The notes under the pieces: generated by a model | Seen by the model: only the letters and a program-made list of their open reading frames with translations | Told to the model about the DNA's origin: nothing | Databases searched by the model: none | Shown here: positions 76 through 57,000 of the stretch, piece by piece | Numbering within the stretch: position 1 is the first letter of the stretch | Layout of the letters: each line of letters starts with the position of its first letter | Made by a program: the position numbers and the translations under genes | Origin: a virus | Reading direction: 5' to 3' (one strand) | Virus genome (UHGV): UHGV-1374897 | Length of the DNA: 64,000 bases

Positions 76-651
76 TTAAACTCTCAAATTGCATTGGAAG
101 GAACTCTTGTGGAGTGAGAGGATTTCATCCTTAGATAGCGTGCTCATGTTAAGCACCATGTGGTCAGGCGTCATGGACAGAATCTCCGCACCCGGCTCCG
201 TAGGAAATATACAACCCAATTTAACGGAGCGGGCAAGAGATGGACGAGCCTTAAACATAGCATCGTAAAGGGTTTTGCTATACCTAACGGCGTAAAAATT
301 ATGGTAGGAAAATAGGGTGGCATAATCATGGTTTTCTCCGCGCTTCACCTTATGGTAGTTGAGACGAAGGATGCGCACCGTTCTATCCTCATAGGCATTC
401 GGGTCGTAGAGTGTCCTAATCGCAAAGAAGATGCCTGACGTGAATACCTCCCCAATACCAAAGGATTCAATCAGGAATTTGGTCTGTTCAGATTGGAGAA
501 TATTATCCTCCGGGTTCCGGGGAATATAGAACTCTCCCTTGACATGGGCAGGAAGAACAATAGGGCTTCCAAGTTTTCCGGTACGACCATTATTATCCCG
601 TGCCCAAGAATGAAGGAGCATGATTTGTTGAGCGAGTGCGATGGGTTTCAT
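76..651 (-). CDS. hypothetical early protein (191 aa)
   Basis: Long minus-strand ORF in the early block; upstream region carries the conserved ATTAGAACC...ATG leader. Confidence 0.6.
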   Translation of the reverse strand: MKPIALAQQIMLLHSWARDNNGRTGKLGSPIVLPAHVKGEFYIPRNPEDNILQSEQTKFLIESFGIGEVFTSGIFFAIRTLYDPNAYEDRTVRILRLNYHKVKRGENHDYATLFSYHNFYAVRYSKTLYDAMFKARPSLARSVKLGCIFPTEPGAEILSMTPDHMVLNMSTLSKDEILSLHKSSFQCNLRV

Positions 652-689
652 ATCTGTTTTGTTTTTGTAGAGCCATGTGGGGGTTCTAA

Positions 690-1043
690 TTAGAAGATAG
701 GTCGAGTGAATCCCATATCTTCAAGGCAACGGGCGAGGCGATTTGCCTCCAGCTGGTGCCGCTCTAGGCGTCGGCGTATGATGTCAATGCCCCACTCTAC
801 CAATAGCTGGAAGACAAACCAGCCTGTGATGATGACGCACCATGTAAGGTACGATATGAGAAGTTCACCAGTGGCAAGGAGATAACCTAAACAAACCAGT
901 GCGCTTACGAGGGCAACAATGCCCACTACCGAATGCAGGTGCTCCACGAGGCTCCACAGGGTATGAAGCCTGTCGGCTCGCCCGATGTGGTGGAGACATT
1001 GCTTGCGGAGGATGACGACGTTAGATTCTTTTTCGGGTGTCAT
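690..1043 (-). CDS. hypothetical small membrane protein (117 aa, two hydrophobic helices)
   Basis: ORF on the early-block strand; hydrophobic stretches VVGIVALVSALVCLGYLL and WCVIITGWFVFQLL; conserved upstream leader. Confidence 0.55.
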   Translation of the reverse strand: MTPEKESNVVILRKQCLHHIGRADRLHTLWSLVEHLHSVVGIVALVSALVCLGYLLATGELLISYLTWCVIITGWFVFQLLVEWGIDIIRRRLERHQLEANRLARCLEDMGFTRPIF

Positions 1044-1073
1044 ACTATAGAGCTATGTGAGAGTTCTAAAGGT

Positions 1074-1679
1074 TCAACGGAGTACGAGCTTCACGGTTTC
1101 CAGATTCAAATCGTCGTTCCATTTGTTGCTCGTAAACTTCACCATGCAGGGGAGGAAGAAACGTTCTGCCAGCTTGCGAACCTTTATGGAATTGATATTG
1201 TTCATAGATTCCTTATCGGGTGTGAGGAATCGGAAGCGCATATAGGTGAGGCTACCATCAACCATGAAGTCCACCGCCCCCGCTTCCTGCGCAATACGCA
1301 GTCCCACTTCCTGCCAGTTCTGATTCACCACCGCAGTAAAGTGCTTTGCCAGTTCTATGGCATCCCCTACAGTCAGAGCCGCCGTTTCCGCAAGTTTCCA
1401 CACCGTGCCATTCCACTTCAACTTGTGGAGCCGGACAATGCACGCGCCATTGTGTGTGCGTTCCAGTTCGATTGCGTAGGGCCGCATGTACGGCTTAACA
1501 TATGCCGTTCCTTCTCCATTCCATTCGGAAGGCCTGTCTATCCTATGGGATATTACACCTGCCTTAAAAGAAAAGATTGCAGGTTGAAGTTTATTGATTC
1601 GATTTGTGAGCTTAAGCCATTCCGTGCGGGAAAGTTCATCACGTTTCCTGCCTGTAATATCAATGTCAAATGCAGTCAT
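1074..1679 (-). CDS. hypothetical early protein (201 aa)
   Basis: ORF on the early-block strand with the conserved ATTAGAACC upstream motif. Confidence 0.55.
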   Translation of the reverse strand: MTAFDIDITGRKRDELSRTEWLKLTNRINKLQPAIFSFKAGVISHRIDRPSEWNGEGTAYVKPYMRPYAIELERTHNGACIVRLHKLKWNGTVWKLAETAALTVGDAIELAKHFTAVVNQNWQEVGLRIAQEAGAVDFMVDGSLTYMRFRFLTPDKESMNNINSIKVRKLAERFFLPCMVKFTSNKWNDDLNLETVKLVLR

Positions 1680-1928
1680 AATTTTGTAGTGTTCTTTGTT
1701 GGTTCTAATAGGAAGAAATAATTTTTAGTATGTATGATACAATCCTTCAAGGATATGTGCATAGGCTTCAACTTGTTCGGTAGGTACGATATGGAAGCCA
1801 TTGCAACTTGCGAGCCGTTCAATATCCCTCATTTGCCGGGTAGTAGTTTGTGAATATTCTTTGGTTGTAACATACAGTACTTTGCCTCGACGGTCAAGGG
1901 TGGCAACGTGCGTTTGATAGGAGAAAAG

Positions 1929-2054
1929 TCAGTTGCCCTGCCATGACATAGAGCGCAAACGCCATCCGTCTAATCCGGTTCGCAAGGGAGACTTGCCACT
2001 TTCTTTTCTGCCTTCAATGTATTCCTTGCCTAATTTTTCAATGTAGGTTCTCAT
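1929..2054 (-). CDS. possible micro-protein (41 aa, MRTYIEKLGKEY...)
   Basis: Below the 60-aa ORF cutoff, but it is preceded by the same ATTAGAACC...ATG leader as neighbouring early genes; the 1725-1928 stretch holds further short ORFs. Confidence 0.3.
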   Translation of the reverse strand: MRTYIEKLGKEYIEGRKESGKSPLRTGLDGWRLRSMSWQGN

Positions 2055-2122
2055 GGTGTTTTGTTATTTGGTTAGAGTTATTTGAGGGTTCTAATAAATA
2101 GGGTAGCTGGGGCGGGTTTAGG

Positions 2123-2872
2123 TCATGCCCTGTAGGAGGGAAGGGTAGAAACGGTTGTGTGGTTATAGTCGAAGCGAGAGTATTGTACACCAGTCAGGCT
2201 TTCAAGGTCTTGCTTCAATCTCTTCACTTGTTCTTCCACTTTAACGGCTTGTGCAAAATAGGCGCACACGTAGTCGGAATCGCAAAGGCGGGTATTTGAT
2301 TCCTCAATCTCCCGGAGCTTGGTATCAAGGCGAACCATATCATTGAAGATTCCTTCAATGAATTTCTCCATGTCCCTTCCGGTGACAATTCGCTTCTGCT
2401 TTTGCGTCAGCTCATTGACGTCAAACTTAAAGGAAATATTCACGGAATCAAACATGCCGGGGAGGATATGATGAAACACCACTTGCGGCCACGTATAGCG
2501 GCTCCAATTTATGTAAGCGTGGATTTTAATGTCCGCCTCAACACTTTGTGTAATTGCGGTGGCCAGACAGTCTTCCAGCATCCGGTCTACTCGGACGTTA
2601 TAGACCTTACCTGCAAACCGGGGGAGGCGTTCGGCCACTAGTGCCAGCATGCGGTGAGTAATAAGGGCGGCCAGACCGTGAGCGGCATTATCTCGGACGA
2701 CCTGTTTCAGGTTATGCCCCATGTTGCGCACCGAGATGACATAGTCATTCTGATTATTCTCCATGAGGTCATCCCGTGTTTCAGCTACGGCGGCATCGAT
2801 AGCGGCATTTGCCCGTTCAATAAGGGCATCAATGGCGGTGACAGTGGTGGGGATTGTGATTGTAGTATTCAT
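2123..2872 (-). CDS. hypothetical early protein (249 aa)
   Basis: ORF directly downstream of early promoter/hairpin cassette E1. Confidence 0.6.
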   Translation of the reverse strand: MNTTITIPTTVTAIDALIERANAAIDAAVAETRDDLMENNQNDYVISVRNMGHNLKQVVRDNAAHGLAALITHRMLALVAERLPRFAGKVYNVRVDRMLEDCLATAITQSVEADIKIHAYINWSRYTWPQVVFHHILPGMFDSVNISFKFDVNELTQKQKRIVTGRDMEKFIEGIFNDMVRLDTKLREIEESNTRLCDSDYVCAYFAQAVKVEEQVKRLKQDLESLTGVQYSRFDYNHTTVSTLPSYRA

Positions 2873-2914
2873 AGTATTATTCTTTCTATCGGTTTATTGT
2901 TGTTTGGTTTATTG

Positions 2915-3000
2915 TTGCGGGGCTTGTCCCCGTTGGATAGTTTCAGGTTAGCAGATTTTCTTACCTTGTCAAATACTTTTTATATGTATGACAAAAGGCG
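2915..3000 (-). promoter_or_regulatory. early promoter cassette E1: A/T-rich upstream element, -35 TTGACA, 16-bp spacer, -10 TAACCT, then 5' stem-loop CGGGG-cttgt-CCCCG (2918-2932)
   Basis: A conserved sequence (minus-strand reading AAAAAGTATTTGACAAGGTAAGAAAATCTG) recurs at five early intergenic sites; the GC hairpin starts about 6 nt after the predicted transcription start. Confidence 0.5.
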
Positions 3001-3008
3001 TATCCTAT

Positions 3009-3437
3009 TTATTTTGAGAAGAGAACAACGAGGGGTACAGGAATATCCAAAAAGTTTCTATCCGTGTAGAGAGTAAAAGAATCGGAGTTTGTGCCATAAT
3101 ACTGCACGGCTCTTTCCCGGAATACTCTAATAGAGTTGCTTCTCACATACGGTTCGGCTTTCGGTTCGCACGTAGGAACGGTGGTTGTGCAATCGGAAAG
3201 ACGAGCACGGAACCTTTCTGTATTTTCAATCAAGTCCTGCACCTTGTATGCGTTAAACTCTACAAGTTTAATGCTAACGGCATTCTGAATACTGACGTGT
3301 TCATGAATCTCATGCTCGTCCGGGTAGTAGTCATAGGTGCGCACAATGCGGCACTTTTCACCTCGGCTATTAACGGCGTTTGATGAAACGTCTTGCGCTT
3401 CCGTAGTTCCCCATACTTCAATCTCATTTTCTTTCAT
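3009..3437 (-). CDS. hypothetical early protein (142 aa)
   Basis: ORF downstream of cassette E2. Confidence 0.55.
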   Translation of the reverse strand: MKENEIEVWGTTEAQDVSSNAVNSRGEKCRIVRTYDYYPDEHEIHEHVSIQNAVSIKLVEFNAYKVQDLIENTERFRARLSDCTTTVPTCEPKAEPYVRSNSIRVFRERAVQYYGTNSDSFTLYTDRNFLDIPVPLVVLFSK

Positions 3438-3462
3438 AGTATTATTCTTTCTATTGTTTTGT

Positions 3463-3560
3463 TGATATAGTTGCCACCCTTCCGGTGGCTGATGAATGTA
3501 CTTTAGCAGATTTTCTTATCTTGTCAAATACTTTTTGTAGAGCGGCGTAGTTATTCAGCT
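3463..3560 (-). promoter_or_regulatory. early promoter cassette E2 (TTGACA-N16-TAAAGT, then hairpin GCCACC-cttcc-GGTGGC)
   Basis: Same conserved cassette as E1. Confidence 0.5.
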
Positions 3561-3576
3561 TTAACGGGTTCCATAT

Positions 3577-3966
3577 TCATTGAATGATACGCAGATAAGA
3601 TACATGCTGAGAATTAGAATGCCGGGTATCTTCTACCTGTTGGACGTTTTCAATGCCGAAAGGGAACCATGCTATCTTTTCCGCTAGCGATAATCTTTCA
3701 AGGGTTAAATACGGGGATTCATCCACGGATGAAATTATCATAACGTCATAAGCACCTACTCGATAGATAGAAAACGTATCTTTCAGGCGCATGCTTCCCG
3801 GCTTGGCAAACTTGTCCAGTAGTACTTCCGAAACCGCCCACACGGCGGGGGAAAGAGTATACTCTTTTCGGTGCAAGGAATTAAAGCTTTCAATAGTCAG
3901 GTGTACTTTGCCATTACCTTCTACTTTTATTTCCTTTCTGATATGTAATTCTGATATGTCTTTCAT
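3577..3966 (-). CDS. hypothetical early protein (129 aa)
   Basis: ORF on the early-block strand. Confidence 0.55.
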   Translation of the reverse strand: MKDISELHIRKEIKVEGNGKVHLTIESFNSLHRKEYTLSPAVWAVSEVLLDKFAKPGSMRLKDTFSIYRVGAYDVMIISSVDESPYLTLERLSLAEKIAWFPFGIENVQQVEDTRHSNSQHVSYLRIIQ

Positions 3967-3995
3967 GGTCTGTAATTTATGATTGGTTTATTGTT

Positions 3996-4151
3996 AAACC
4001 CCGGAATCCCCGGAACCCGTTGCACCCGATATCCCCCGCATTCCGGGGGCGGGAATTATTCCTTTGTCTTTCTACTTTATCTTTCTATGTGGTTAGAGTT
4101 ATTTGACGGGTTCCGGGGATTCCGGGGTTTAAATGTTCCATGTGGAACAAT
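3996..4151. repeat. Composite inverted-repeat element: perfect 23-bp IR (3996-4018 and 4108-4130, with CCGGAA motifs) flanking an 89-bp spacer, followed by the 14-bp palindrome GTTCCATGTGGAAC (4135-4148)
   Basis: The two arms are exact reverse complements; the palindrome and 21 bp of its context recur identically at 8296-8319. Confidence 0.8.
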
Positions 4152-4181
4152 TTTGATTCCCCGGAACAAGCCGCAAGTGGT

Positions 4182-4715
4182 TTATATTCTTCCAGTTACC
4201 AGCGTTTGGCCGTGCATCGTCCGAACCCAGAAATTAACGATATCACGGGGACGGGGGGATACATTGTGCCCGTTCATATCGGTGAAAGTATGTCCCGTTT
4301 CTACCAAGGCTATCAGATTGCGGATGACACTCCGCAGGGTTTGATTTCCTTTCAGATACACCTTTACCCGGCTACCGTCTGTGAGCTTAAGTTCAAGGTA
4401 GCAGTTAGTCATCCGGCAACCCGGATTTATCCATGATAGGACGGCACCCATAAAGCGAGGCAGGACATAGTATTTTACACAGTCACAGGGCAAGCCAAAG
4501 GCGGGCGTGCTGGTGAAATGTGCTTCCGGCTGGTCGTCCACAGGGCAAACTAGGAAATAATCTTTTTCCCACTCTTCAATGTTTTCAAGGTCTTCATCTC
4601 TCATATCTTCCTTGCCTTCCCCGTATTCAAGGGGATAGACTGCCCATTCTGGAATGTAATGGATAAGGGCATAGTCCGATACTTTAAGCACTTCCGGTTT
4701 AGTTGTAGTCTTCAT
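4182..4715 (-). CDS. hypothetical early protein (177 aa)
   Basis: ORF on the early-block strand. Confidence 0.55.
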   Translation of the reverse strand: MKTTTKPEVLKVSDYALIHYIPEWAVYPLEYGEGKEDMRDEDLENIEEWEKDYFLVCPVDDQPEAHFTSTPAFGLPCDCVKYYVLPRFMGAVLSWINPGCRMTNCYLELKLTDGSRVKVYLKGNQTLRSVIRNLIALVETGHTFTDMNGHNVSPRPRDIVNFWVRTMHGQTLVTGRI

Positions 4716-4769
4716 AATATGGTTGCTTTCTATTGTTTATTATTAGTTTGATTTTATAGAGCGGCGTAG

Positions 4770-5093
4770 TTATTCAATGGGGAGCGGCGTAATTATAGAA
4801 GCTTTAGCTACTGACTGGCAGAACCGTTGTTCCAGATACCGGTTAATTTCCTCCGGGTCGTAGGTACACCAAGCCCCTAACTCATTCTCATTCACCGCCT
4901 GCCACAAGCGCACAATGTCAGAATCATCTAATGTGGGCAGGGCGTCCCACGGGTATATGTTAAGCAGGGCGGCAATAGGGCGTGCATGTGAAGGTGATGT
5001 GGCGAAAAAGATAAGGGACAGAAGGCCGTCACCGTTTTCGTAGAATGCCCATGCGGGGATTTCATTGTCTTTCAGTTCAATTTGAGTGTTCAT
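4770..5093 (-). CDS. hypothetical early protein (107 aa); paralog of 7143..7505
   Basis: Clear protein similarity to 7143..7505 (MNTQIELKDNEIPAWAFYENGDGLLSL vs MNTQIKLQDGETLTWAVHENGAGILSL; shared HARP.AA...PWD). Confidence 0.6.
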   Translation of the reverse strand: MNTQIELKDNEIPAWAFYENGDGLLSLIFFATSPSHARPIAALLNIYPWDALPTLDDSDIVRLWQAVNENELGAWCTYDPEEINRYLEQRFCQSVAKASIITPLPIE

Positions 5094-5130
5094 GTTATAG
5101 TGTTGTTTAGGTTTTCAGTTGTATGATAAA

Positions 5131-5457
5131 TTAGAGCGGCCAAGAAATAGTTTCCGGGGAATCAGAAAGGGCTAGTACAAAGTCAGTTTCAAACTGTCTT
5201 ATCACAATATATCCGAAGTCCGGTGTATATCCTTTAAGCTTTCCCAGAATGCACCAAGCATCCATTCTGATTTTAATCTCGCTACCCCTTGGCAGGGCGG
5301 CAAGTAGCTTCCTTGCTTTTTCGATTCCCTTGCATACCCTATCCGTAACGGTAAGCATGAGGGCGGTATCTTCCTTCCAGTTATGGGGCAAGATTGTCAT
5401 CTTGTCAGGGTCTGATACGTCCATTTCGTCATAGTCTAATTTTAGTATTTCTTTCAT
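5131..5457 (-). CDS. hypothetical early protein (108 aa)
   Basis: ORF downstream of cassette E3. Confidence 0.55.
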   Translation of the reverse strand: MKEILKLDYDEMDVSDPDKMTILPHNWKEDTALMLTVTDRVCKGIEKARKLLAALPRGSEIKIRMDAWCILGKLKGYTPDFGYIVIRQFETDFVLALSDSPETISWPL

Positions 5458-5487
5458 AAGTTATTTCTTTCTAATGGTTTGAGGTTA

Positions 5488-5580
5488 TGCGGGGGCTTGT
5501 CCCGCTTGCTGATTTTAGTTTATCGGATTTTATTATCTTGTCAAATACTTTTTTAGGGCGGTGTAATTTTTCAGGGGGAA
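5488..5580 (-). promoter_or_regulatory. early promoter cassette E3 (TTGACA-N16-TAAACT, then hairpin around 5491-5510)
   Basis: Conserved cassette. Confidence 0.5.
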
Positions 5581-5581
5581 C

Positions 5582-5884
5582 TTAACGGTTATACACAATC
5601 CTTGCGCCCGCTTCCTCCAGTGCGAGGCATAGCGGGTCGGAAATAAAGGCACGGCTAACTACCATTTCGCCGGGGTGGTAGCTTTCAATGCTTATTGCCC
5701 GCATTTCCCCCGATTCCCGGCACCTGACAAGTAGGCTTGCCTTGCTTCCGGTTGCTTCCGCTAGTGCGGCGATTAGTTCCAGCTCTTCATCATGTCTTGC
5801 GGATAGTTGGAATAGATAGGGGCGTGTTTCCCGGATATGAGCGGCTAAAATATTGATTGCCGTTTTCTTTTCGTCTTCATTCAT
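5582..5884 (-). CDS. hypothetical early protein (100 aa)
   Basis: ORF on the early-block strand. Confidence 0.5.
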   Translation of the reverse strand: MNEDEKKTAINILAAHIRETRPYLFQLSARHDEELELIAALAEATGSKASLLVRCRESGEMRAISIESYHPGEMVVSRAFISDPLCLALEEAGARIVYNR

Positions 5885-5961
5885 GGTCTTATTTCTTTCT
5901 ATTGTTGTTTTTTGATTTTTGATTTTATAGGGCGGTGTAACTTTTCAAGGGAGGTTGGATT

Positions 5962-6390
5962 TTAGTAAATCTCTTCCAGCTCTTCCCATTCACCCGGCCG
6001 GGTGAAGAAGGTTTTAAGTTCCGCATATTCATGGCACGCCCCCGTGTACTTGCTATAGGAAGTCATGTCATAATCCCCCGTTTCCTCGTCATATCGGGGC
6101 AATCCCATTTCTATACAAAAGTCTTGATATGAGCCACAATCGGATTTACACAGACAGGCAAGGACGTCATAGGCGGTTGGCGTCTTGTGCTGGTCGGCGT
6201 GAGACTGGTAGAACGTGATGAAGATTGCTTGCCTTTCGCCCTTTTGAGGACTTTCCCGGTGTAAGACAATTTCCCATGTACTATGAGGCTCTTTGTCCCA
6301 CAAGGGAACATATCTTCCCTTATATTTCCCGGTGATTCTGATTCCACAATTTCTTAGGAATCTTTTTGCGTGTTCTGTATAGATGCTCAT
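5962..6390 (-). CDS. hypothetical early protein (142 aa), Cys/His-rich
   Basis: ORF on the early-block strand; an overlapping 78-aa ORF in another frame is probably spurious. Confidence 0.5.
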   Translation of the reverse strand: MSIYTEHAKRFLRNCGIRITGKYKGRYVPLWDKEPHSTWEIVLHRESPQKGERQAIFITFYQSHADQHKTPTAYDVLACLCKSDCGSYQDFCIEMGLPRYDEETGDYDMTSYSKYTGACHEYAELKTFFTRPGEWEELEEIY

Positions 6391-6459
6391 TGTCTTATTT
6401 CTTTCTATTGTTTAATTGTTAATATGTTAATATGTTAGGGCGGTGTAACTTTTCAGAAA

Positions 6460-7012
6460 TTAAACCCGGCTTACCAGTTTGAGGACAAGGTTTAACCCGT
6501 CATCATAGGTGCGCACCATGTGCCGGCCCGCCCCATAGGTCTCACATTGTGCGGGGGTTAAATAGTAGCGGTGAACGAAAAACGCAGGACTAGGCCGGCC
6601 GTAGCGGTTAAAATCCCATGAGGCAGGGGCCTGTGAATCGTCCCATTGCAACCATGCAACGGGAACATATCTCTGTGAAGTATAAAGGTCTACGAGCTTA
6701 TCAGTAGACAAGGCGAAAAGCCACTTGCCCCCGTGAGAGTGGATTGAATCGAAAACGTCATCCAGCGGGACTACCGCACCGGGGTTTTTGACTAGGGTGG
6801 CAATCTCGCCAGTAGGTAGGATTGTCCACACCGCCGTGACACGCCCGCCGTCACTATCGCCCCCTACGTAGGCAAACCGTTTCGCCCCCTCGTAAAAGTC
6901 CGGGGAATGTACGTCTACCGCCCCCCCGGATTCCGGCCGGGTGCAAGTCCCGGAAATGATTTGCGAGGCCCGTGAATGTGGTTGCGGGTACGTTAATAAT
7001 TTGATTCTTCAT
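6460..7012 (-). pseudogene. early gene interrupted by a +1 frameshift at a G7 (plus-strand C7) tract at 6921-6927: ATG at 7010-7012 gives MKNQIINVPATTFTGLANHFRDLHPAGIRGG..., which leaves the frame of the 123-aa ORF 6460..6831
   Basis: The ATG at 7012 sits at the conserved distance from cassette E4 with the typical A-rich leader. The 6460..6831 ORF has no in-frame ATG (the track start is GTG) and stays open upstream in-frame as far as the homopolymer. Removing one G fuses the two frames. Confidence 0.5.
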
Positions 7013-7055
7013 TGTTTTATTTTCCTTTCTTCTTTTAGTTTTCGTTTTGTTGTCC

Positions 7056-7145
7056 GGGGGTTGTCCCCCGTTGATGATTTCAATTTATCAGATTTTCTTA
7101 CCTTGTCAAATGTTTTTTGTTTTTGTATGACACAATCGTAAGTTA
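7056..7145 (-). promoter_or_regulatory. early promoter cassette E4 (TTGACA-N16-TAAATT, then hairpin CGGGGG-ttgt-CCCCCG)
   Basis: Conserved cassette. Confidence 0.5.
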
Positions 7146-7505
7146 TTCATCCGCAATGTTGAAGGCCTTGCGGGCGGCGTATCCCATGCGGTCTGTCTCC
7201 ATGATTGTCACTAGTTCCCCGGTGGGATAGATAACGGTGTTATGTGCAACCGGACGGCCCGCCTCGTGCCTCAAAAAGCGGTGGATATCCGCAATGTCAT
7301 AGTTAACCCCGTCCCACATGTGCACCATGTCCAAATCCTCAAGGGCGGGGGCAACGTCCCAGGGGAAAATGTCAAACACGGCCGCAACAGGGCGGGCATG
7401 TGCGATTGTTTCTGCGTACAGGACGAGGGACAAAATGCCCGCGCCGTTTTCGTGCACCGCCCATGTGAGAGTTTCACCGTCTTGTAATTTGATTTGAGTG
7501 TTCAT
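7143..7505 (-). CDS. hypothetical early protein (120 aa); paralog of 4770..5093
   Basis: Protein similarity to 4770..5093; downstream of cassette E5. Confidence 0.6.
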   Translation of the reverse strand: MNTQIKLQDGETLTWAVHENGAGILSLVLYAETIAHARPVAAVFDIFPWDVAPALEDLDMVHMWDGVNYDIADIHRFLRHEAGRPVAHNTVIYPTGELVTIMETDRMGYAARKAFNIADE

Positions 7506-7544
7506 GATTTAGTTTCCTTTCTTGTTAGTGTTTCTATTGTTTCC

Positions 7545-7625
7545 GGGGTTGCCCCCGTTGATGATTTAACTTTAACCTATTTTATCTTGTTGTCAAATGT
7601 TTTTTGTTTTTGTATGACACAATTA
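7545..7625 (-). promoter_or_regulatory. early promoter cassette E5 (TTGACA-N16-TAAAGT, then hairpin)
   Basis: Conserved cassette. Confidence 0.5.
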
Positions 7626-7767: not shown

Positions 7768-8151
7768 ATGAACAATCAAACTATAAGCAATGACGCCCCC
7801 GCACCAAGAGACCGGGAAAATAAGATGAAGCTCGTGAGAGCCGCCGCCGCTAATTTAAGAGACACAATCACCTACGCCCGCCTCGCTATTGTGCCGGATA
7901 AGCGGCTCGGAGACGTAGACTATCTTGAGGCGGTGGAAGCTCTCTATTGCGGCCCCCTTGGCACGGATGACGCAGACCCTACAGAGATTTTGCTCTCTGT
8001 CACTTACGGTGCCGGATTGCCCGCCGATAAAGCGGATGATGTTGAGTACGAGCTACGCTTCATTGTTGATTCTCTACCATTCACCCCGGATGACTTTTTC
8101 CGGGGAACAGGAGACGGCACAAAGGAATACGGTGCGGTCTTTACTCTCTAA
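7768..8151 (+). CDS. acidic hypothetical protein (127 aa, about 23 Asp/Glu); the first rightward gene
   Basis: ORF with a strong Shine-Dalgarno (TAGGAGAT, 8 nt before the ATG), unlike the SD-less early genes. The net acidic composition suggests a possible DNA-mimic or anti-restriction role, but this is unproven. Confidence 0.55.
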   Translation: MNNQTISNDAPAPRDRENKMKLVRAAAANLRDTITYARLAIVPDKRLGDVDYLEAVEALYCGPLGTDDADPTEILLSVTYGAGLPADKADDVEYELRFIVDSLPFTPDDFFRGTGDGTKEYGAVFTL

Positions 8152-8221
8152 AAACCAACGGGTTACGATTGTGTCATACAACTTCCCCGGTATCCATTGC
8201 ACCCCCGGATTCCCCGGCACA

Positions 8222-8245
8222 CTATATATAGAGAGAGAGAGAGAC
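8222..8245. repeat. (TA)4(AG)8 microsatellite
   Basis: tatatatagagagagagagagac. Confidence 0.9.
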
Positions 8246-8284
8246 GGCACCCCCGGTTCCTTTGGATTCTTTTGGATTTAAATT

Positions 8285-8368
8285 GTAAATGTAAATGTAA
8301 ATGTTCCATGTGGAACAATCCGGCAATCGGGCAATCGGGCAATCCGGCAATCGGGATTCCGGATTCCG
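8285..8368. repeat. Repeat cluster: (TGTAAA)3, palindrome GTTCCATGTGGAAC (8303-8316), (GGCAATCGG)4 tandem, (GGATTCC)2
   Basis: Directly visible tandem repeats; the palindrome is identical to 4135-4148. Confidence 0.85.
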
Positions 8369-8759
8369 GGGTTGTGGTGGGATAGCGGGTTCAACGGGTT
8401 CCGTTGTTGCTATCGGGTTCCGGGGGTGCAACAATATGACGTACAAGATATAGGGGTTTTACATTTTTGTAAAACTATTAGTCCAATACTTGACTATTAA
8501 TGAGGGAAGGATACCTATACCCCTATGGGTATGGCTTGTATGTTGTTGATACTTAACCAGTACCAGACCGGACAATTTAAGGGCAAGACCGTGCCCCTTT
8601 TCTGCCTTCTCCAGCGCCTTCAATTTCAATCCCTATCGGAATAGTAGGAAAACCAAAACCCCGATTTTGCATTATATGTATTATGCGAAGTATGGAAGCG
8701 GATTCCTTTGAGCATCAATGAGTTACGCATATCAGGGTGCCAGTGGGAAACAGACTTTG

Positions 8760-9040
8760 CATCCCCGGATTCCATGGAGACCTACAGACCACTTCATACC
8801 ATAAGTTTCTTATCATCAGACGGTTGCAACAGATTCCGGGGATTCAATGGGTTGCATGCCGTACCGTTCCCGTGACGAGGGCGGGAGCAGTCCATGGCAG
8901 GCGGCATACCGTTTCCGTTGCAATACGGGGACCTATCATACCGATTCCGCTACAGGTGGGGGGATAGGCAGGCCGCTGAAACATACTGATTCCGGTGCAA
9001 TCAGGGCAAAAAGGTTCCGTGATGCACCGATTCCGTGGGT
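8760..9040. repeat. Iteron-like array: at least 6 degenerate copies of (C/T)GATTCCG(N)TGCAAT-like sites spaced about 40-60 bp apart
   Basis: gattccgggg (8832), gtttccgttgcaatacgg (8910), ccgattccgctacagg (8942), ctgattccggtgcaatcagg (8988), ccgattccgtgggtatagg (9028). Confidence 0.5.
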
Positions 9041-9177
9041 ATAGGGGGAAACTGGATGCCAAGGAAATCCAAACACCACCACGGTTTCCCAGGCTCCGGG
9101 GTTGCACGCGGCCCATAGTAAATAGTTGGGTCAAATTTTTTCCGTGGGGTACGGGGGAGGGGGTACCCTTCTGGGCA

Positions 9178-9303
9178 TGTCAAGCAAAATCGACACGCGG
9201 CCGTTCCACGGGCGGGATATACTTCTGGTCTGTTTCAGCCTCATCTGGTCTGCACCTTATCTCCGACTTGTCAAGCAAAATCGACACGCGGCCGTTCCAC
9301 GGG
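9178..9303. repeat. Perfect 35-bp direct repeat TGTCAAGCAAAATCGACACGCGGCCGTTCCACGGG (9178-9212 and 9269-9303, period 91 bp)
   Basis: Exact duplicate. The overlapping plus-strand ORFs 8995..9390 and 9126..9320 merely translate the repeat (SKIDTRPFHG twice) and are probably not genes. Confidence 0.85.
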
Positions 9304-10228
9304 GGGACGTATCGACCTAGAAGGCGGGCATACTCTTCGGGCAAATTTACTAGAGTGTGGCGGGGTATAGGTAGCGAGATGGTACATTAGTCATGAAACA
9401 GGAGATAGGGCACTACCATCGACCAAATTTGCGCACGGCGGGCATAATGCGAGGGAGCGGCTCTCACGGATTTGGCGGTAAAGAAAAAGCCCGCAGGTAG
9501 CTTGACGAGACTACCCACGGGCGTAACTATGGAAAATGCCTGTAGAAAGGAGAGTGTTTGGTCCGCTCCTGTGGCGAGCAAGTTCCTTGCTTGGGATAGC
9601 CAGAAGCATTGAGCTTAGCTGGTTCGGTTGCCGTTCGGAGCGAACAGGTGCAACATATCACATCAGGGGAGAAAGTCAAGAGGAAATCAGCGTGATGGAC
9701 GCGTTTACGAATTTAATCCAGTGTGGCGAGGTAGAAGGAGGGGATGGGGTCCGGGTGGATAGTTGTAGCGGAGGGATGGTTGCGGCGCGTTCTAGGGTAG
9801 GACCCTCGATTAAATTCAGGGGATTTGGGGATTGTCTGTCATGTGCAACCCGTTTGGCCAATATACAAAGTTCTTGACATTTGTTTAGGGTGTGCTATCC
9901 TACGCCAGTTCGTAAGCATTGCAGAACGGCAAGAACCACGGCGTTTAATAGGTTCTGCCACCAAGACAATGCACCAATCCCAAGGCGACGGACTACATTT
10001 GTTTGTAGGTGTTGATGGAACCCCGGAGGCAGGTTTATCCTGTTTCCGGGGTTTTCTTTTACCCAATAGCCTCAAAATCAAGGTAAGCGATTGAGAATTA
10101 AAATCATAGTAGGAAGACATTAAGGTTAAGGAGCTTGCTCTCCTATAACTGACCTTGAAGGCATTACCAATGTTTAACACAGGTTCGGCTCTTCATAAGT
10201 CGTTGAGAATCAGTAAAACCCCCTTCGG

Positions 10229-10714
10229 CTAACAGAGTTTAACAGAGGCCTAACATTGGCTCTGTGATAGTTAAGTGCTTTAGATTGAACCGCTTCTGAA
10301 ATCCTAACACTTAACATTGATACCATTGAATATTATATACGTATATAGGGAACCCTATACCCCTTTTCTTATAAAAAAATATTAAAAATAAATATGTATT
10401 ATGTTATGTTATTTTAGAAAAAAGGACGCTACTACCGTTTCACTATCAATCACTTATGACCTAACAATAACTAATTGACACCTCTGTTAGCCCCGGAACC
10501 CACGGAACCCAGAATCCACGGAATAACAGAAGCAAGTTCCTCATAATCAATGGACTTCTCAAATCCTAACAGAGGTGTCAAAAACTTATCAATCAGCCGA
10601 AAACTCTGTTAGGGTCTGTGTTAAAACGAGCAACCTCAATAGGTTACAACTACCAAAGAATTGGAACAGAGGGCACCTTTGTCCCAATCCTAACACAATA
10701 ACACAATAACAGAC
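10229..10714. promoter_or_regulatory. Cluster of CTAACAGAG sites, including a 16-bp IR TTGACACCTCTGTTAG (10475-10490) / CTAACAGAGGTGTCAA (10566-10581), plus CACGGAAC repeats (10494-10525), upstream of the first replication-module gene
   Basis: Motif copies at 10229, 10241, 10482, 10566, 10604 and 10688. Confidence 0.45.
10323..10432. promoter_or_regulatory. AT-rich tract (candidate DNA-unwinding element)
   Basis: ttataaaaaaatattaaaaataaatatgtattatgttatgttattttagaaaaaag, in an otherwise roughly 50% GC genome. Confidence 0.4.
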
Positions 10715-10718
10715 CATC

Positions 10719-11594
10719 ATGACACAGTTTTTGAATTTTCACTTGACAGCCCGCGTCCTGTCTGCTACCGTGCCGTCGATGAATACATCAACACCACAAA
10801 ACACTAGTCGGACCGTCGAGGACCATGTGAACCAGTTTGTGCTGGAGTACATGCTCTATCTGCGGAGTTTCATGGATGAATATCCCATCGCAGGGGTATC
10901 TCCCCGCAACAGTTCATGTTGCGACGCCATCTACCTCGAAAATGATTCCCTCCCAATATATATACAGGGACCGGACAGTCGCCCGCTATCGTCTACGCCA
11001 TTGGTGGCTTTGCTTCAATATTTGGCAGAGCGGCCCTTCGTCCGGTTTACGCTTCCGACATTCTACCAGCTCCTGACCACAATATATGGTTCCCCGGTAA
11101 CCGAGACCCCATTCAACCGATTGCTCTGCGCATCCACGGTAGCCCTCGATATCGCGGATTCCGTGGGTTCCGAGGGTGCCATGTTCACGCTCGCGCCACG
11201 GGCTATGGACTTTGTACGGAACCTTCCCAAGAGCAAAGATACGGAGACCATCAAACTGATAGAAGAGAACTTCCATATCCCATGCCCCGTAGCCCAAGGT
11301 CCTGCGTCCAATTCCCACTTCATCTATTGGGAGGTGATGCCACAACTGACCACCGACACCGCGAGGCGATACCTGAAAGTGCTTCACTTCGCACAAGAAG
11401 GGAGACGTAGTCCCGTAGGTATTTTCGCCCTCCATCGTAATGAGGTCTATTCCCTTTCCAGCCTCATGTCCACCTTGCGCGAGATGAACGAGAGGCAACT
11501 TATTCAGTGGCCCAAAGAAGGCGAGAAGGAAAGCGCGGAGGCCCGTATAGAAGAATTTGAACCCGTCTTCGCAACTATTGAACCCAAGAAGTAA
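10719..11594 (+). CDS. hypothetical protein (291 aa)
   Basis: First plus-strand ORF after the non-coding region; no recognisable motifs. Confidence 0.55.
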   Translation: MTQFLNFHLTARVLSATVPSMNTSTPQNTSRTVEDHVNQFVLEYMLYLRSFMDEYPIAGVSPRNSSCCDAIYLENDSLPIYIQGPDSRPLSSTPLVALLQYLAERPFVRFTLPTFYQLLTTIYGSPVTETPFNRLLCASTVALDIADSVGSEGAMFTLAPRAMDFVRNLPKSKDTETIKLIEENFHIPCPVAQGPASNSHFIYWEVMPQLTTDTARRYLKVLHFAQEGRRSPVGIFALHRNEVYSLSSLMSTLREMNERQLIQWPKEGEKESAEARIEEFEPVFATIEPKK

Positions 11595-45048: not shown

Positions 45049-45288
45049 ATGAACGACAAAGTAGCTATTTTAGAAGACAAAGGATTTGGATTCTTCCGAG
45101 TAACTCACTGTGGAAGTGTCATTGCAGATTTTCTTTACTGCACTGGCTCTGGTGAACAAGGATATATGACACGAGATTCCGCAAAGAAACTGGCAACGAA
45201 GATTGCCCGCTACGTAGTTAGCAGAGGGACAGTTTGTACCATCGAGGGAGTATCACTTAACCAAATCTATTTCAACACCGATGACTGA
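45049..45288 (+). CDS. paralog-array member 1 (79 aa)
   Basis: Shares the FxxYC...G(F/Y)(F/M)T(K/R)(D/E)xAKKLAxKIA motif with the next six ORFs. Confidence 0.6.
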   Translation: MNDKVAILEDKGFGFFRVTHCGSVIADFLYCTGSGEQGYMTRDSAKKLATKIARYVVSRGTVCTIEGVSLNQIYFNTDD

Positions 45289-45517
45289 CACTCTAAATAT
45301 TACCACCGTAGATGACCCCGATATCGGGTTTTTCTGGGTCCTGCTTGAAAACTGTTGCGTTGCCACCTTTTACTATTGCGTGAAAGATGATAGTGGCTTC
45401 TTCACCAAGGAGCAAGCTAAGAAACTGGCCGACAAGCTCTCCCGCAAAATTGAGAAGAGCATGATTATCGAAACCGAAAAGGGAATCAAATTGGAAAGGA
45501 ACAACATCAATGAATAA
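45281..45517 (+). CDS. paralog-array member 2 (78 aa)
   Basis: GFFTKEQAKKLADKLSRKIEKSMIIETEKGIKLERNN; an 8-nt ATGACTGA overlap with member 1. Confidence 0.65.
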   Translation: MTDTLNITTVDDPDIGFFWVLLENCCVATFYYCVKDDSGFFTKEQAKKLADKLSRKIEKSMIIETEKGIKLERNNINE

Positions 45518-45746
45518 CGATTCAGATACCCGTGTTTATGACCTCCCTACTAGCGGAATGTTCCGCGTCAGGCACAGAGGAAGTTGCGTCGCCGTTTTCA
45601 ACTATTGCGTGGCAGATGAAAGCGGCTTCTTCACCAAGAAGCAAGCTAAGAAACTAGCCATCAAGCTCGCCCGCAAAATTGAGAAGAGCACGGTCATAGA
45701 AACAAAGATGGGAATCAAACTTAAAAGGAACAATACTAATGACTGA
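45510..45746 (+). CDS. paralog-array member 3 (78 aa)
   Basis: GFFTKKQAKKLAIKLARKIEKSTVIETKMGIKLKRNN; an 8-nt overlap. Confidence 0.65.
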   Translation: MNNDSDTRVYDLPTSGMFRVRHRGSCVAVFNYCVADESGFFTKKQAKKLAIKLARKIEKSTVIETKMGIKLKRNNTND

Positions 45747-45981
45747 CACTCTAAATATTACCACCGTAGATGACCCCATTGCCGGATTTTTCCGGGTCAT
45801 GCTTGAAAACTGTTGCGTTGCCGCCTTTTACTATTGCACGGAAGGCGAGGAAGGACATTTCACCAAGAAGCAAGCCAAGAAGCTGACCGAGAAGCTAGTC
45901 CGCAAAATTGAAAATAGTACGACCATCAAAACCAAAAAAGGATTTAAACTTAAAAGGAACAACAATGACCAACGAGATTAG
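45739..45981 (+). CDS. paralog-array member 4 (80 aa)
   Basis: N-terminal 13 codons identical at the DNA level to member 2; HFTKKQAKKLTEKLVRKIENSTTIKTKKGFKLKRNN. Confidence 0.65.
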   Translation: MTDTLNITTVDDPIAGFFRVMLENCCVAAFYYCTEGEEGHFTKKQAKKLTEKLVRKIENSTTIKTKKGFKLKRNNNDQRD

Positions 45982-54069: not shown

Positions 54070-57000
54070 ATGGCCATTGACTTTAGTACCGCCAATATGT
54101 CCGACTTCACTCCGAAGTCGGGAAGCAGTATTGCACGTGAACAGCGAGCCGTAGAAAGGCACGCCGCGTGGCAAGAGACGCAAGCGCAGAAACAAGAAGA
54201 CAGAAAACAGAAAGCACTGGACCGCGAGCAAAGGCTAGCGGAAAAGAGACAGACCCGTGCGGAGAAAGCCGCAGAAGCCACCGCAGAGTTTGACACCTTT
54301 ATCGTTAAGTCCGTGGATGCCTTTGCGGAGAAACAGAAAAAGGATGCGGAACACGCGAAGAATGTAGAATGGCAAGATAAATCCCGCGCCCATACGGAAC
54401 AAGAATGGAAAACCGCCGAGGAAAATAAAGCCCTCGACATCTTGAACAAAGGAAACCGTGGGTACAGCTTTGAGGGAATCGACTACATGAAAGACTATGT
54501 AGAGCGCGGAGAGGATGCACTGGTTGATTTGACGGCCGCCGCTCGTGGCGATAAGGATGCTATTAAAAAGATTACGAATAATACGGGCATCGTCGCAGTC
54601 CTTTCCTCCGAACTTCCTCCCCAACATTCTGCATTCTTATCCCGCTCTGGCTTCGGAAGTGGAGAGGACGGGAACCCCGTCGTAACGGAAAAGTTCCTCG
54701 CTATTGCCGCGGACAGAAACCGTAACGCAAAGGCGGTGGCCAAATCCATTGCCACCACAATGGAGAAGGCCCGGAAGGATTACCTCAACAAGAATCTAGA
54801 TGTTGTGTCTGGTAAACCTACGGCACAAGCCATCGAGACCGCACCTATTGCTTACACCGCAGAAGAAATAGAAAGCGTCATCAATACGATTAGGCGCGAA
54901 GACATTGGCAACTATCGTGCCGCTAAGGCTCTTTACGACAAACACCGCTCTTCTTCGACGGAGGGCGTGCAGAAGAAAACCCCCAGCCAAACGAGCGTGG
55001 GGGAGCTTGGCGTTGGCGAATTCTCTGATTCAGCACCTTCATTTACTGGGAATGTTTTTGCTGAACTCGCCAACCTTTCCAAGTCTCCCAGCAAAATGTT
55101 CCGACTTGTCCGCGACTACGGGGATTACCTGTCCCGGAGTACGGAAGATATTAAATCCCCGGAAGCCAAGGAATCCGATTCCCTTTCTCCCGCCGCTAAA
55201 CGTGCAGGGGAAATGGCAGTAGCGCAGGTTAAAGCCGTGGACAACATTGTCTCGCGGATGGAAGAGAGCTACACCGGATTGGATGCCGTGGGACTAAGGG
55301 ATGCTCTCCTTAACCCCGAAGCAGTAGCTTCTGCGGCATTGGCCCTTGCCCCCGGCGTGGACATGGATGCAGTGCGCGAACGAGCAAATACCTTAGCCAC
55401 CGAGCGTCATGCCGTGGTAACCTCCGACTACCAGAAAGCAATGGCTGATGCCATGATGGAAGAATTGGCTACAAGGTTTCCGGGGGTTCCGAAGAATATA
55501 TTACTACAGGCCGGGACGACGAAACTGATTCAGGACTATACCACCAAAGCTACACCGAGAGGCACCCTCATGGATGCAGTCAAAGGCGCACTGGCTAACT
55601 ACCGAAGCGCGGCAGGACAAGTTGCGGACGTACTTACCTTCCAACCGGGGAATAGTGTGGGCAAGACCACTGACCCAATGAGTACGATGGAATGGAGGAA
55701 GGGAACGAGGCACGGCTCTTGGGAGTATGGTGTAGTGGGAGGCCCTGCCTTTGAAGTAGGTCCCGAACAGTTGAAGGAATACATGGCCCAGTACCATATT
55801 GAAAGTACTCGCGATGCCCTTAACTCCCTCTCCCATGCCGCACGTATGGGTGACTTGGGCGTAGGTCGTGGCAGTCTCTTTGCGTACAACCCGCACACCA
55901 AGGAAGTTGATACGAACGCCACACTCGAACTGAACCCCAATGCTCTCTACAATGATAAGCTGATGGACCAGAGCATAGAGGCTCTCCGTGCTAGTGGCGC
56001 GGACGAAGGTCTCATCAATCGCACCATTGAGAAGTTCCAGAACCTCCGCAAGAAATCCGCACAGGAACTTGTGAAGGACAACATTGCATTGGACGAGACG
56101 CTGGGGACGCTTCGCGATACGTGGCTTGGCTCCGGCTTGCAGTTCAACCCTATCTTGACTGAATCCATGAAGCATCTGGACAAGCACCTTTCCTTCAAGA
56201 ATTTTTACAACGAACAGAAGGAAGTGGGCAAGAGTGACGAGGACATCCTCTCCGCATGGCAGGAGAAAGGGCAAGACACCATCAACTCTGTTCTCCGTGG
56301 GTTGCAGATAGGTACACACAAGGCAATCGACCTTGGGACAGGTGCCGCCTATGGTGCTCTTCTCTTTGCACAGAATGCAGTTGGCAGTCGTGCGGCGATG
56401 GAACATACCCGCACCCTCTGGGACCAGCTGAACAAAAAACAGGAAGCGGAAGCTGAACTTGTTCGAGGCAATATCCTTGCGGATTATACTGCGGAAATCG
56501 CTAACCTCGGCTACCAAATGGTAGCAACCGCGGGGGCTGGTAAAGTTGGCGGCCTCGCTGGGCGTGCACTGGAACGTACCGCGCTATCGCGGTTCGCGAA
56601 GGCAACGGCTAACGTTGTAGCGAAGCGGGCAGAAGCTCTTGTCCCTGCCGCCCGTCCGGGATTGGCGGGACGTTTGAGTGGAACTATTCAGCGCAACCTC
56701 GACAACCTTGCGGCGTTGAACCTCGAACGGGCAGGAGCTGGAGCCGGGGTAAATCTTAGCATCATCTCGCAGGTTGCACCGAATGCTTACTCCGACATCT
56801 TCTATACCATTTATGATAGGGAGATGGAAGGGAAGGAACCGACTGCCGAGAACACGAACAGGGCACAGAGCATTGCCAACATGCGTGCCCTCTTTGGTGC
56901 GGCTCTCGTATCTACTGGTAGTACTCTCATCAACAACCGCGCAGGTATGGATTCCTTCATGCGTAAGATTGTTGGGGCTAAAAACCTTCGCGGTCAATCT

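Follow-up and report, generated by a model that had tools for sequence, protein, structure and literature searches.

In phage-plasmids, P1 and N15 among them, both the genes for ParA/ParB and the centromere belong to the element itself. On bacterial chromosomes, ParB recognizes parS, whose canonical sequence is TGTTCCACGTGGAACA (PMC4368675, PMC7022226), and a dif site measures 28 bp, its two arms of 11 bp each being separated by a centre of 6 bp (PMC5357621). Known mobile elements that integrate by using Xer recombination (IMEXs) carry a dif-like attP; the phage IMEXs reviewed (CTXphi, VGJphi and TLCphi) are filamentous, and a gonococcal island also carries such a site (PMC5357621). The origins of staphylococcal pathogenicity islands (SaPIs) contain 6-12 short element-specific iterons, an AT-rich centre and opposed iterons flanking it, two or more to a side, and Rep, a helicase that loads itself and may be fused to primase, reads these iterons with a winged helix at its C-terminus (PMC9371898). 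Here, we describe the stretch between positions 8152 and 10718 of UHGV virus genome UHGV-1374897, of which 64,000 nt (the window, i.e., the whole stretch of DNA that was analyzed) were available, corresponding to most of a ~70-kb phage genome. On balance, we favor the view that this stretch is a composite cis-acting hub made up of a replication origin, a dif site and a parS site of host type, and small RNAs.

The initial annotation found no convincing open reading frame (ORF) in this stretch, and comparison of five genomes bears this out. Substitutions in 8480-10718 show no 3-periodicity in any sub-segment (p 0.4-0.9) and indels are frequent there, while codon periodicity is evident in the coding controls, the 291-aa gene that starts at 10719 (p=6e-8) and the primase gene that follows it (p=5e-60). 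The missing periodicity and the frequent indels rule out hidden protein-coding genes, and the stretch is non-coding. The ordered repeats that had been listed are likewise all present, with small corrections given below. Relatives were gathered from IMG/VR, ENA, Logan and JGI, and conservation among them is uneven. The 8182-8440 segment, a microsatellite zone, is different in each strain; conservation is moderate over 8480-9060; it reaches 92-100% identity over 9060-9830, as high as in the primase gene and higher than in the 291-aa gene (70-90%); 9840-10040 is swapped out between strains; and 10040-10718 is conserved only inside one replicon type. The same architecture of leftward genes, a 2.7-kb gene-free gap and primase is found in L023, a distant relative with 40% protein identity in the primase. 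It matches the window at 8662-8753 (81.5%) and 9022-9156 (74%), and its AT tract and the scaffold described below are still recognizable.

The sites through which host proteins may act on the phage DNA are as follows.
8664-8691, minus strand: dif-like Xer core, ACTTCGCATAA-TACATA-TAATGCAAAAT, 28 bp (11-bp arm, 6-bp centre, 11-bp arm).
8692-8753: conserved flank on the XerC-arm side, 81.5% identical to L023, including ATCAATGAGTTA at 8714-8725.
8302-8317: parS-like 16-bp palindrome TGTTCCATGTGGAACA, matching the canonical site at 15 of 16 positions.
4134-4149: second parS-like copy, TGTTCCATGTGGAACA, in an intergenic gap of the leftward gene block, conserved in relatives.

Compared with the dif sites of E. 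coli, V. cholerae and B. subtilis, the segment at 8664-8691 scores 20/28, 19/28 and 21/28, respectively, the highest in the 64 kb, where the runners-up reach 17-18; its arms are symmetric at 8 of 11 positions as judged by eye. A search of 185,579 species genomes with the arm pattern and a free centre retrieved 70 matches, 58 of which are in Akkermansia/Akkermansiaceae, one per assembly. The centre is TATATG in 33 species (ACTTCGCATAA-TATATG-TAATGCAAAAT) and TACATG in 11, including a metagenome-assembled genome of A. muciniphila, and the flanks are unrelated between species. Since this site is present in a single copy, has unconserved flanks and is similar to known dif sites, we infer that it is the chromosomal dif of Akkermansia. 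The phage site is identical to it in both arms (22/22) and differs at one position of the centre (5/6; 27/28 overall), and this 28-mer is the only similarity between the window and Akkermansia dif loci. From the identity of the arms we infer that Akkermansia is the host of the phage family; the same match implies that host XerC/XerD would act on phage DNA. A site was found in 41 related loci, one per locus, and is identical to that of the window in 31 of them; it lies within a block that is conserved even in L023. So is the 62-nt flank on the XerC-arm side, beyond which an array of GATTCCG repeats begins. Within the flank, ATCAATGAGTTA was picked up by a regular-expression scan with the consensus of integration host factor (IHF), and we take it to be an IHF-consensus-like sequence.

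The two parS-like copies, at 4134 and 8302, share an identical 21-nt context; the former sits among CCCCGGAATCC/GGATTCCGGGG repeats and the latter likewise amid GGATTCCGGGG repeats. With up to 3 mismatches allowed, parS matches number 2 in the window against 0.27 expected. The site can be written TGTTCCA(C/T)GTGGAACA, and many relatives have the exact canonical 16-mer (16/16 to TGTTNCACGTGNAACA), two per genome where the loci reach far enough. Neither 430 kb of unrelated metagenome loci nor 536 kb of Akkermansia dif loci contain the exact 16-mer. ParB half-sites (GTTCCAC) are not enriched. By their sequence, both copies appear to be near-canonical parS sites of host type. The initial annotation had noted a palindrome in the stretch, and both TGTTCCATGTGGAACA at 8302-8317 and TTTTACA-TTTT-TGTAAAA at 8457-8474 are indeed there, but the host-type dif and parS sites had been missed. 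No integrase or other recombinase family turned up in the ~60 ORFs of the window, nor any Pfam match to ParA or ParB, so that host XerC/XerD and ParB would have to act on the phage DNA.

A dif-like site could also serve as attP, in which case the phage would be temperate and would integrate at Akkermansia dif by means of host XerCD, as IMEXs do. Both of its arms are identical to those of host dif and its centre matches at five of six positions, no integrase was detected in the window ORFs, and known IMEXs have a dif-like attP (PMC5357621), all of which would suit integration. Against this, each Akkermansia assembly has one site and not two, the phage core pattern gave 0 matches in the 185,579 species genomes, relatives assemble as ~70-kb circles, and the two parS copies together with an autonomous replication module suit an episome better. 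We thus regard use of the site as attP as rather unlikely, while keeping it as the main alternative to resolution of multimers by XerCD.

The putative origin occupies the right-hand part of the stretch and consists of the following elements.
10165-10322, plus strand: left iteron arm, with TAACA[CG]A/CTAACA sites at 10175, 10230, 10240, 10250 and 10304, all forward.
10323-10432: AT-rich tract, putative DNA-unwinding element, containing palindromes TATATACGTATATA and TATAGGGAACCCTATA.
10433-10718: right arm, with iterons in reverse orientation at 10483, 10605 and 10617 and in forward orientation at 10524, 10567, 10691, 10699 and 10707.
10467-10490/10566-10589: 24-nt inverted repeat of the right arm, with GGAACCC repeats at 10491-10523.
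10444-10456: IHF-consensus site TATCAATCACTTA in the right arm (regular-expression scan).

At 19% GC, positions 10325-10424 are the lowest point of the whole 64-kb window, the next lowest being 26%. The initial annotation had proposed an origin with this tract as its unwinding element, and here an origin in this region is supported and the tract is the best candidate for such an element; the iterons that had been assigned to it, discussed below, do not hold up. All four exact copies of CTAACAGAG fall in 10175-10715, as do all 11 TAACA[CG]A sites of the 64 kb, each within 270 nt of the AT tract. The last iterons of the right arm, three tandem sites, overlap the probable promoter/-10 region of the 291-aa gene.

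The comparison of this region in 26 relatives covered eight types of primase-helicase that are 28-53% identical to each other. Several types share the DNA to the left, with the core at 9336-9835 being 93-97% identical and homology stopping at ~9835-10064. We also observed that whole replication modules are swapped between otherwise near-identical genomes at this boundary (~9835-10064; loci L013-L130). Most types have a single 7-mer in 9-12 copies, and from type to type it is exchanged as a set: TAACA[CG]A in the window and TGTCACA, GTTGTTA, CTAACAA, GGAACAA, AAGGACA or TGAGACA elsewhere. For the unambiguous 7-mers, all copies in a locus of 5-14 kb fall within ~600 nt of the local AT minimum. 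L079 has the shorter AAGGAC, the repeat of L041/L073 is weaker (5 copies), and that of the L023 type was seen only by eye. L076 and L101 separate the orientations, with forward copies to one side and reverse copies to the other; elsewhere, the window included, orientations are mixed. The other replicon types examined have an AT-rich minimum and a conserved scaffold at the equivalent position; the scaffold common to them comprises the AT tract, two inverted repeats, TTTTAGAAAAAAGGAC, the IHF-consensus-like (A/T)ATCAAnnnnTTA, a repeat pair and CCCCGGAACCCACGGAACCC.

The CTAACAGAG arrays had been read in the initial annotation as binding-site clusters for regulators. They flank the AT tract, and relatives of another replicon type have a different 7-mer in place of the entire set, which is the behaviour of origin iterons. 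The segment at 10165-10718 is probably the replication origin of the phage.

Several pairs of relatives bear on which protein reads the iterons. L035 and L042 differ by exchange of a segment of ~540 nt at the origin alone, and the flanks are 94-98% identical. The primases of L042 and L079, which have different repeats, are 82-98% identical but only 67% identical in the last 86 aa, whereas primases with the same iterons are identical in the last 86 aa. The 291-aa protein was considered as the reader of iteron specificity and set aside, its counterpart being 99% identical in L035/L042 despite different iterons; the C-terminus of the L035 primase lies off the contig. Some types insert an extra gene of 260-330 aa between the origin and the primase gene, and the C-terminus of its product looks winged-helix-like by eye. 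A homology search with the C-terminal fragment of the primase returned nothing.

The same sites can be viewed as operators of the rightward replication operon, with the AT tract as promoter/UP DNA and the origin elsewhere. It is true that the three tandem TAACAGAG sites overlap the probable -10 element of the 291-aa gene, that a TTGACA abuts an inverted site, and that the order of secondary structure elements in the 291-aa product is winged-helix-like (in a model with a predicted local distance difference test score, pLDDT, of 57). However, 9-12 sites in opposed orientation, distributed over ~550 nt to the left and right of the genome's deepest AT minimum, are the published anatomy of Rep-type origins, and we consider a purely regulatory role unlikely. 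Autoregulation through origin iterons is common in iteron plasmids, and for this reason the operator and origin roles are not exclusive.

To the left of the origin lie two predicted small RNA genes and the most conserved part of the stretch.
9478-9679, minus strand: predicted small RNA gene; promoter TTGACT-16-TATGTT at 9679..9652, transcript ~9646..9478 (~165 nt).
9874-10062, plus strand: predicted small RNA cassette; promoter TTGACA-16-TATCCT at 9874-9901, terminator at 10019-10053 followed by a T-run, body of ~150 nt.
9336-9835: conserved non-coding core, 96% mean column identity over 29 distinct sequences, the most conserved block.
9058-9177: conserved block b; identity is 94-98% among close relatives and 74% with L023.

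The terminator of the minus-strand RNA has 13 pairs (9522..9489) followed by the TTTTTCTTT T-run. In the 29 distinct sequences its -35 element and terminator are invariant and changes in the -10 element preserve the consensus, and the RNA folds better than shuffled sequences (z = -3.6). For the plus-strand RNA the fold z-score is -4.55; in relatives the promoter and terminator of this cassette are kept while the body is replaced, and G3 has two cassettes. Thus, two small-RNA genes, each with promoter and terminator, are predicted. Repression of early genes by the minus-strand RNA through an anti-Shine-Dalgarno sequence was considered and discarded, for no preference for early-gene starts is seen (p = 0.8). 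The Rfam and tRNA searches suggested earlier gave no Rfam family, tRNA or tmRNA in the region; the nearest Rfam model was rdlD, at 25.2 bits against a gathering threshold of 50 (E 0.066), on the hairpin of the plus-strand terminator.

The ~750-nt block at 9060-9830, in which the minus-strand RNA lies, is conserved like the primase gene. Two copies of a ~90-nt module are found in it. Compared with every relative examined, the window has a 65-nt deletion at 9335/9336, between TTCGGGCA repeats, which takes the 3' part of the upstream copy of this module; the other copy is at 9727-9817. The core at 9336-9835 is joined to at least four non-homologous types of replication module.

The initial annotation allowed for a structured non-coding RNA, which holds for the two small predicted genes; a single large RNA of a new family, transcribed rightward from 9060-9830, is another matter. 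The 92-100% conservation of the block, equal to that of the primase gene and above that of neighbouring genes, its retention across unrelated replication modules, a G-rich plus strand on which many one-sided changes are compatible with G-U pairing, and two compensatory pairs in one hairpin are in line with such an RNA. But the minimum free energy of the alignment (-117) is no better than that of column shuffles (-120.7 +/- 5), changes on both sides occur in only 4 of 147 predicted pairs, Rfam gives no match, and no convincing plus-strand promoter or terminator was found, while a well-defined minus-strand pair lies inside the block. L079, moreover, does without 9215-9514. Neither thermodynamics nor covariation thus lends the large RNA convincing support, and we doubt that it exists.

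The remaining repeats are in the left half of the stretch.
8757-9042, plus strand: GATTCCG repeat array of the TACCGATTCCGnTGC type, single orientation, 32-45 nt spacing.
8457-8474: palindrome TTTTACA-TTTT-TGTAAAA, inside a block alignable with closer relatives.
8182-8440: hypervariable tandem-repeat zone of CCCCGG/GGATTCC units, (AG)n, (TAAATG)n, CAATCGGG x5 and GGATTCC x2.

The array at 8760-9040, described earlier as GATTCCG(N)TGCAAT, had been taken for the iterons of the origin, with the AT tract as its unwinding element. It is a real and ordered array, with five 18-nt copies in 8862-9042 and three 15-mers (up to 1 mismatch) within 92 nt, although TGCAAT is present in only two of the GATTCCG copies, and in G3 the repeats are retained while the spacers have diverged, as is typical of protein-binding sites. 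However, 1.3 kb separate it from the AT tract, and this interval holds the two predicted RNA genes and a 500-nt conserved block. The motif family GATTCCG/CCCCGGA/GGAACCC/CCACGGA is ~5-fold over-represented throughout the genome, on both strands, and surrounds both parS sites as well. Finally, the array region remains alignable (80-92%) between genomes with non-homologous replication modules, whereas the repeats adjacent to the AT tract change. An iteron function of the array is therefore very unlikely; it may possibly provide sites for accessory proteins beside the Xer site. GATTCCG/CCCCGGA motifs show no polarity around the putative origin over the whole window. Motifs of the same family also form short tandem arrays within coding regions, e.g., at 38386, 42894, 53332 and 57895.

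In the hypervariable zone, repeat unit and copy number vary in every relative. The microsatellites reported there are (AG)7.5 at 8230-8244, (TAAATG)4.2 at 8279-8304 and CAATCGGG x5 at 8316-8355; the period of the last array, given before as 'GGCAATCGG', is 8 and not 9. Assemblies of relatives break inside this zone. That the region holds the physical ends of the genome or a packaging site, as the ends of at least nine independent contigs of relatives inside it might suggest, is hardly probable, since these ends coincide with tandem repeats, the TATATA tract or the duplicated CGTTCTAGGGTAGGACC module, two relatives are ~70-kb contigs with a 55-nt end overlap each, i.e., circular assemblies, and the terminase gene is 12 kb away; the repeats and circular overlaps account for the contig ends.

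Taken together, the elements of the hub suggest the following scheme, each biochemical step of which is proposed from sequence. The TAACAGAG-family iterons on both sides of the 100-bp AT-rich element are probably bound by a DNA-binding domain of the adjacent replication module, the candidates being the C-terminus of the primase-helicase and/or the 291-aa product. Reading of the iterons would lead to helicase loading and primer synthesis, as at SaPI Rep origins, and the genome would replicate from the origin as a circle. Host XerC/XerD, acting on the copied dif, would resolve multimers of the circular replicating genome, and host ParB, acting on the two parS copies, would ensure its segregation, giving the phage a carrier state like that of a plasmid; in the alternative case, the phage would be integrated at dif by XerCD. 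The two small RNAs (minus strand, 9646..9478; plus strand, ~9908-10062) and the 9060-9830 block may add regulation. Circle replication with XerCD resolution and ParB segregation seems to us the most economical mechanism, with XerCD integration as its chief competitor. Tentatively, and with somewhat less than even confidence, we suggest that a ~70-kb Akkermansia phage persists through host XerCD/ParB acting on the copied dif and two parS sites, beside an autonomous iteron origin, either as a stably segregating episome, which would make it a phage-plasmid lacking par and res genes, or as a tailed-phage IMEX.

A number of observations weigh against this scheme. No integrated copy or episome was found in the reference genomes, with 0 matches to the phage core pattern among 185,579 species genomes, and since this is so, the lifestyle is deduced and not observed. 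The window leaves out about 6 kb of the ~70-kb genome, in which a gene for a recombinase or ParB could lie. The more distant relatives of the L023 group are without parS in the available DNA. L079 naturally lacks 300 nt (9215-9514, with the junction at CCACGGGCG repeats), a loss that takes with it the second 23-nt motif described below, the core's 5' part and one of the two arms of the minus-strand terminator; it follows that part of the core is dispensable. As to the origin, the iterons that overlap a likely promoter could be operators. AlphaFold2 models are poor (pLDDT 57 for the 291-aa protein and 46 for the C-terminus of the primase), and Foldseek gave no significant match. Cumulative GC skew, proposed earlier as a check, has a maximum and not a minimum at ~10200-10300, which is where transcription diverges. 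Being of the wrong sign and confounded by divergent transcription, GC skew is uninformative for the origin, and we discarded it as evidence.

The neighbourhood of the hub includes the following features.
10719, rightward: start of a 291-aa gene, unannotated, the first of the replication genes.
11600, rightward: start of the gene for a primase plus VapE/D5-like helicase, 956 aa.
7768-8151, plus strand in this genome: inverted gene cassette with its own promoter, in the opposite orientation in G2, G3, G4 and L016 and absent from G1.
2868-2996, 3433-3558, 5448-5574, 7008-7135 and 7492-7623: ~130-nt repeat ahead of several leftward genes.
9178-9215 and 9269-9306, plus strand: two copies of a 38-nt repeat, each a 23-nt motif, TGTCAAGCAAAATCGACACGCGG, followed by a short GC hairpin.

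Small leftward genes fill 76-7505, with a repeated sigma-70-like promoter/leader unit ahead of each; they are followed by the gene-free stretch and then by the rightward replication genes. The stretch had been placed between the leftward block and the replication module, and this is correct except that the block is interrupted by the plus-strand gene at 7768-8151, whose cassette is inverted in this genome. The cassette is bracketed by inverted copies of TTGTATGACACAAT (7610-7623 and 8168-8181), which is the upstream element of the repeated early promoters. The two copies of the ~130-nt repeat that were read (7008-7135 and 7492-7623) have this upstream element together with a TTGACA-16-TAAAGT/TAAATT promoter, a GC hairpin and a ribosome-binding site, so that the repeat looks like an early-promoter cassette.

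Further replication genes on the right encode a family-A DNA polymerase, a helicase and an exonuclease. Past them come the terminase gene and rightward genes without family matches, presumably structural, and a 3218-aa ORF (54070-63726) that has no detectable family and no match in Pfam, PHROG or PDB sequences. ORFs of 985 aa (49161), 718 aa (34013) and 756 aa (26801) are likewise without a Pfam or PHROG match. Many rightward genes (e.g., 32445 and 34013) have predicted starts with A/T-rich leaders and no Shine-Dalgarno sequence, and at 45273-45964 a 229-nt unit is present in three tandem copies (71% identity). No DNA-level similarity to the window was found among 50,697 phage records, and the lineage is, by this comparison, novel; its family-A DNA polymerase is only ~26% identical to any entry among these records. 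Several relatives' records carry a human gut metagenome label.

The 38-nt repeat corresponds to the direct repeat that had been reported as 35 bp long; its two copies are 97% identical and scan as weak terminators on the minus strand. Its 23-nt core, TGTCAAGCAAAATCGACAYGCGG (9178-9200 and 9269-9291), has 0 chance matches in shuffles; it is present twice in the window and up to four times in relatives, always on the plus strand and only in this region, and L023 has three exact copies and a fourth near-copy at 8890. In a metagenome scan, the 18-mer TGTCAAGCAAAATCGACA was also found in at least 72 distinct unrelated environmental contigs (loci L026-L144). There, its reverse complement reads TGTCGATTTTGC-TTGACA and is followed in 60% of cases by a -10-like hexamer 16-18 nt further on, compared with 19% for other TTGACA sites in the same loci, and the genes downstream are diverse, several of them phage- or mobile-element-like by eye. 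In these contigs, the reverse complement of the 18-mer is thus apparently the -35 element plus upstream part of sigma-70 promoters. Such a role was rejected for the phage family studied here, where only 2 of 27 copies have a -10 element. That the motif is shared with promoters of unrelated environmental phages is, like the conserved block at 9060-9830, a lead.

The assignment of a host from sequence points to Akkermansia, a prominent gut commensal; a full-text search turned up 6 papers in all with any mention of its phages. If our reading is true, a large phage in which neither a recombinase nor a partition gene was detected would have a minimalist means of persistence in its own origin, a copied dif and two copied parS sites, and the long-term carriage of such phages in the gut might find an explanation here. 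The occurrence of at least eight interchangeable replication modules with different iteron sets on one conserved scaffold provides a natural experiment on how primase-helicases read origins.

The partition sites resemble chromosomal parS in being 16-bp palindromes, identical to the canonical sequence or 1 nt off it and present in two copies, and differ from phage-plasmid partition as in P1 and N15 in that no ParA/ParB was detected in this phage and the site is of the host-chromosome type. The plasmid sites cer and psi have ~160-180 bp of accessory sequence beside the XerC arm that binds accessory proteins. The phage site is like them, and like IMEX attP, in its 28-bp core, in arms that copy host dif and in that no recombinase was detected in the element; its conserved flank on the XerC side is shorter than the accessory sequences of cer/psi and unrelated to them. 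Unlike the known phage IMEXs, the carrier is a ~70-kb phage with a large terminase gene and the host would be a verrucomicrobium, and no integrated form flanked by two dif-like sites was found, each Akkermansia assembly having one site.

As to the origin, the lambda ori and that of phage P4, which has ori/crr and the alpha primase-helicase, have short initiator-bound repeats next to an AT-rich stretch, in or beside replication genes; the lambda ori is inside gene O, and P4 has a second distant repeat cluster, crr. The phage locus is similar to both in that short repeats adjoin an AT-rich stretch near replication genes, and no sequence similarity to either was seen. The differences from SaPI origins are more specific: the phage ori is upstream of the 291-aa gene and primase-helicase, whereas the SaPI ori is immediately downstream of rep; the phage iterons are 7-9 nt, and the AT tract is longer (~100 bp); and the phage adds a conserved scaffold (IHF-like site, TTTTAGAAAAAAGGAC and GGAACCC repeats) and, in some types, the gene of 260-330 aa. 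With the SaPI Pri/Rep origins the phage locus shares iterons of element-specific sequence (6-12 in SaPIs, 11 TAACA[CG]A sites in the window), an AT-rich centre with iterons on both sides, whose opposed orientation is cleaner in L076/L101 than in the window, and a position beside a primase and a D5/VapE-like helicase, which are fused in SaPI5 as they are in this phage.

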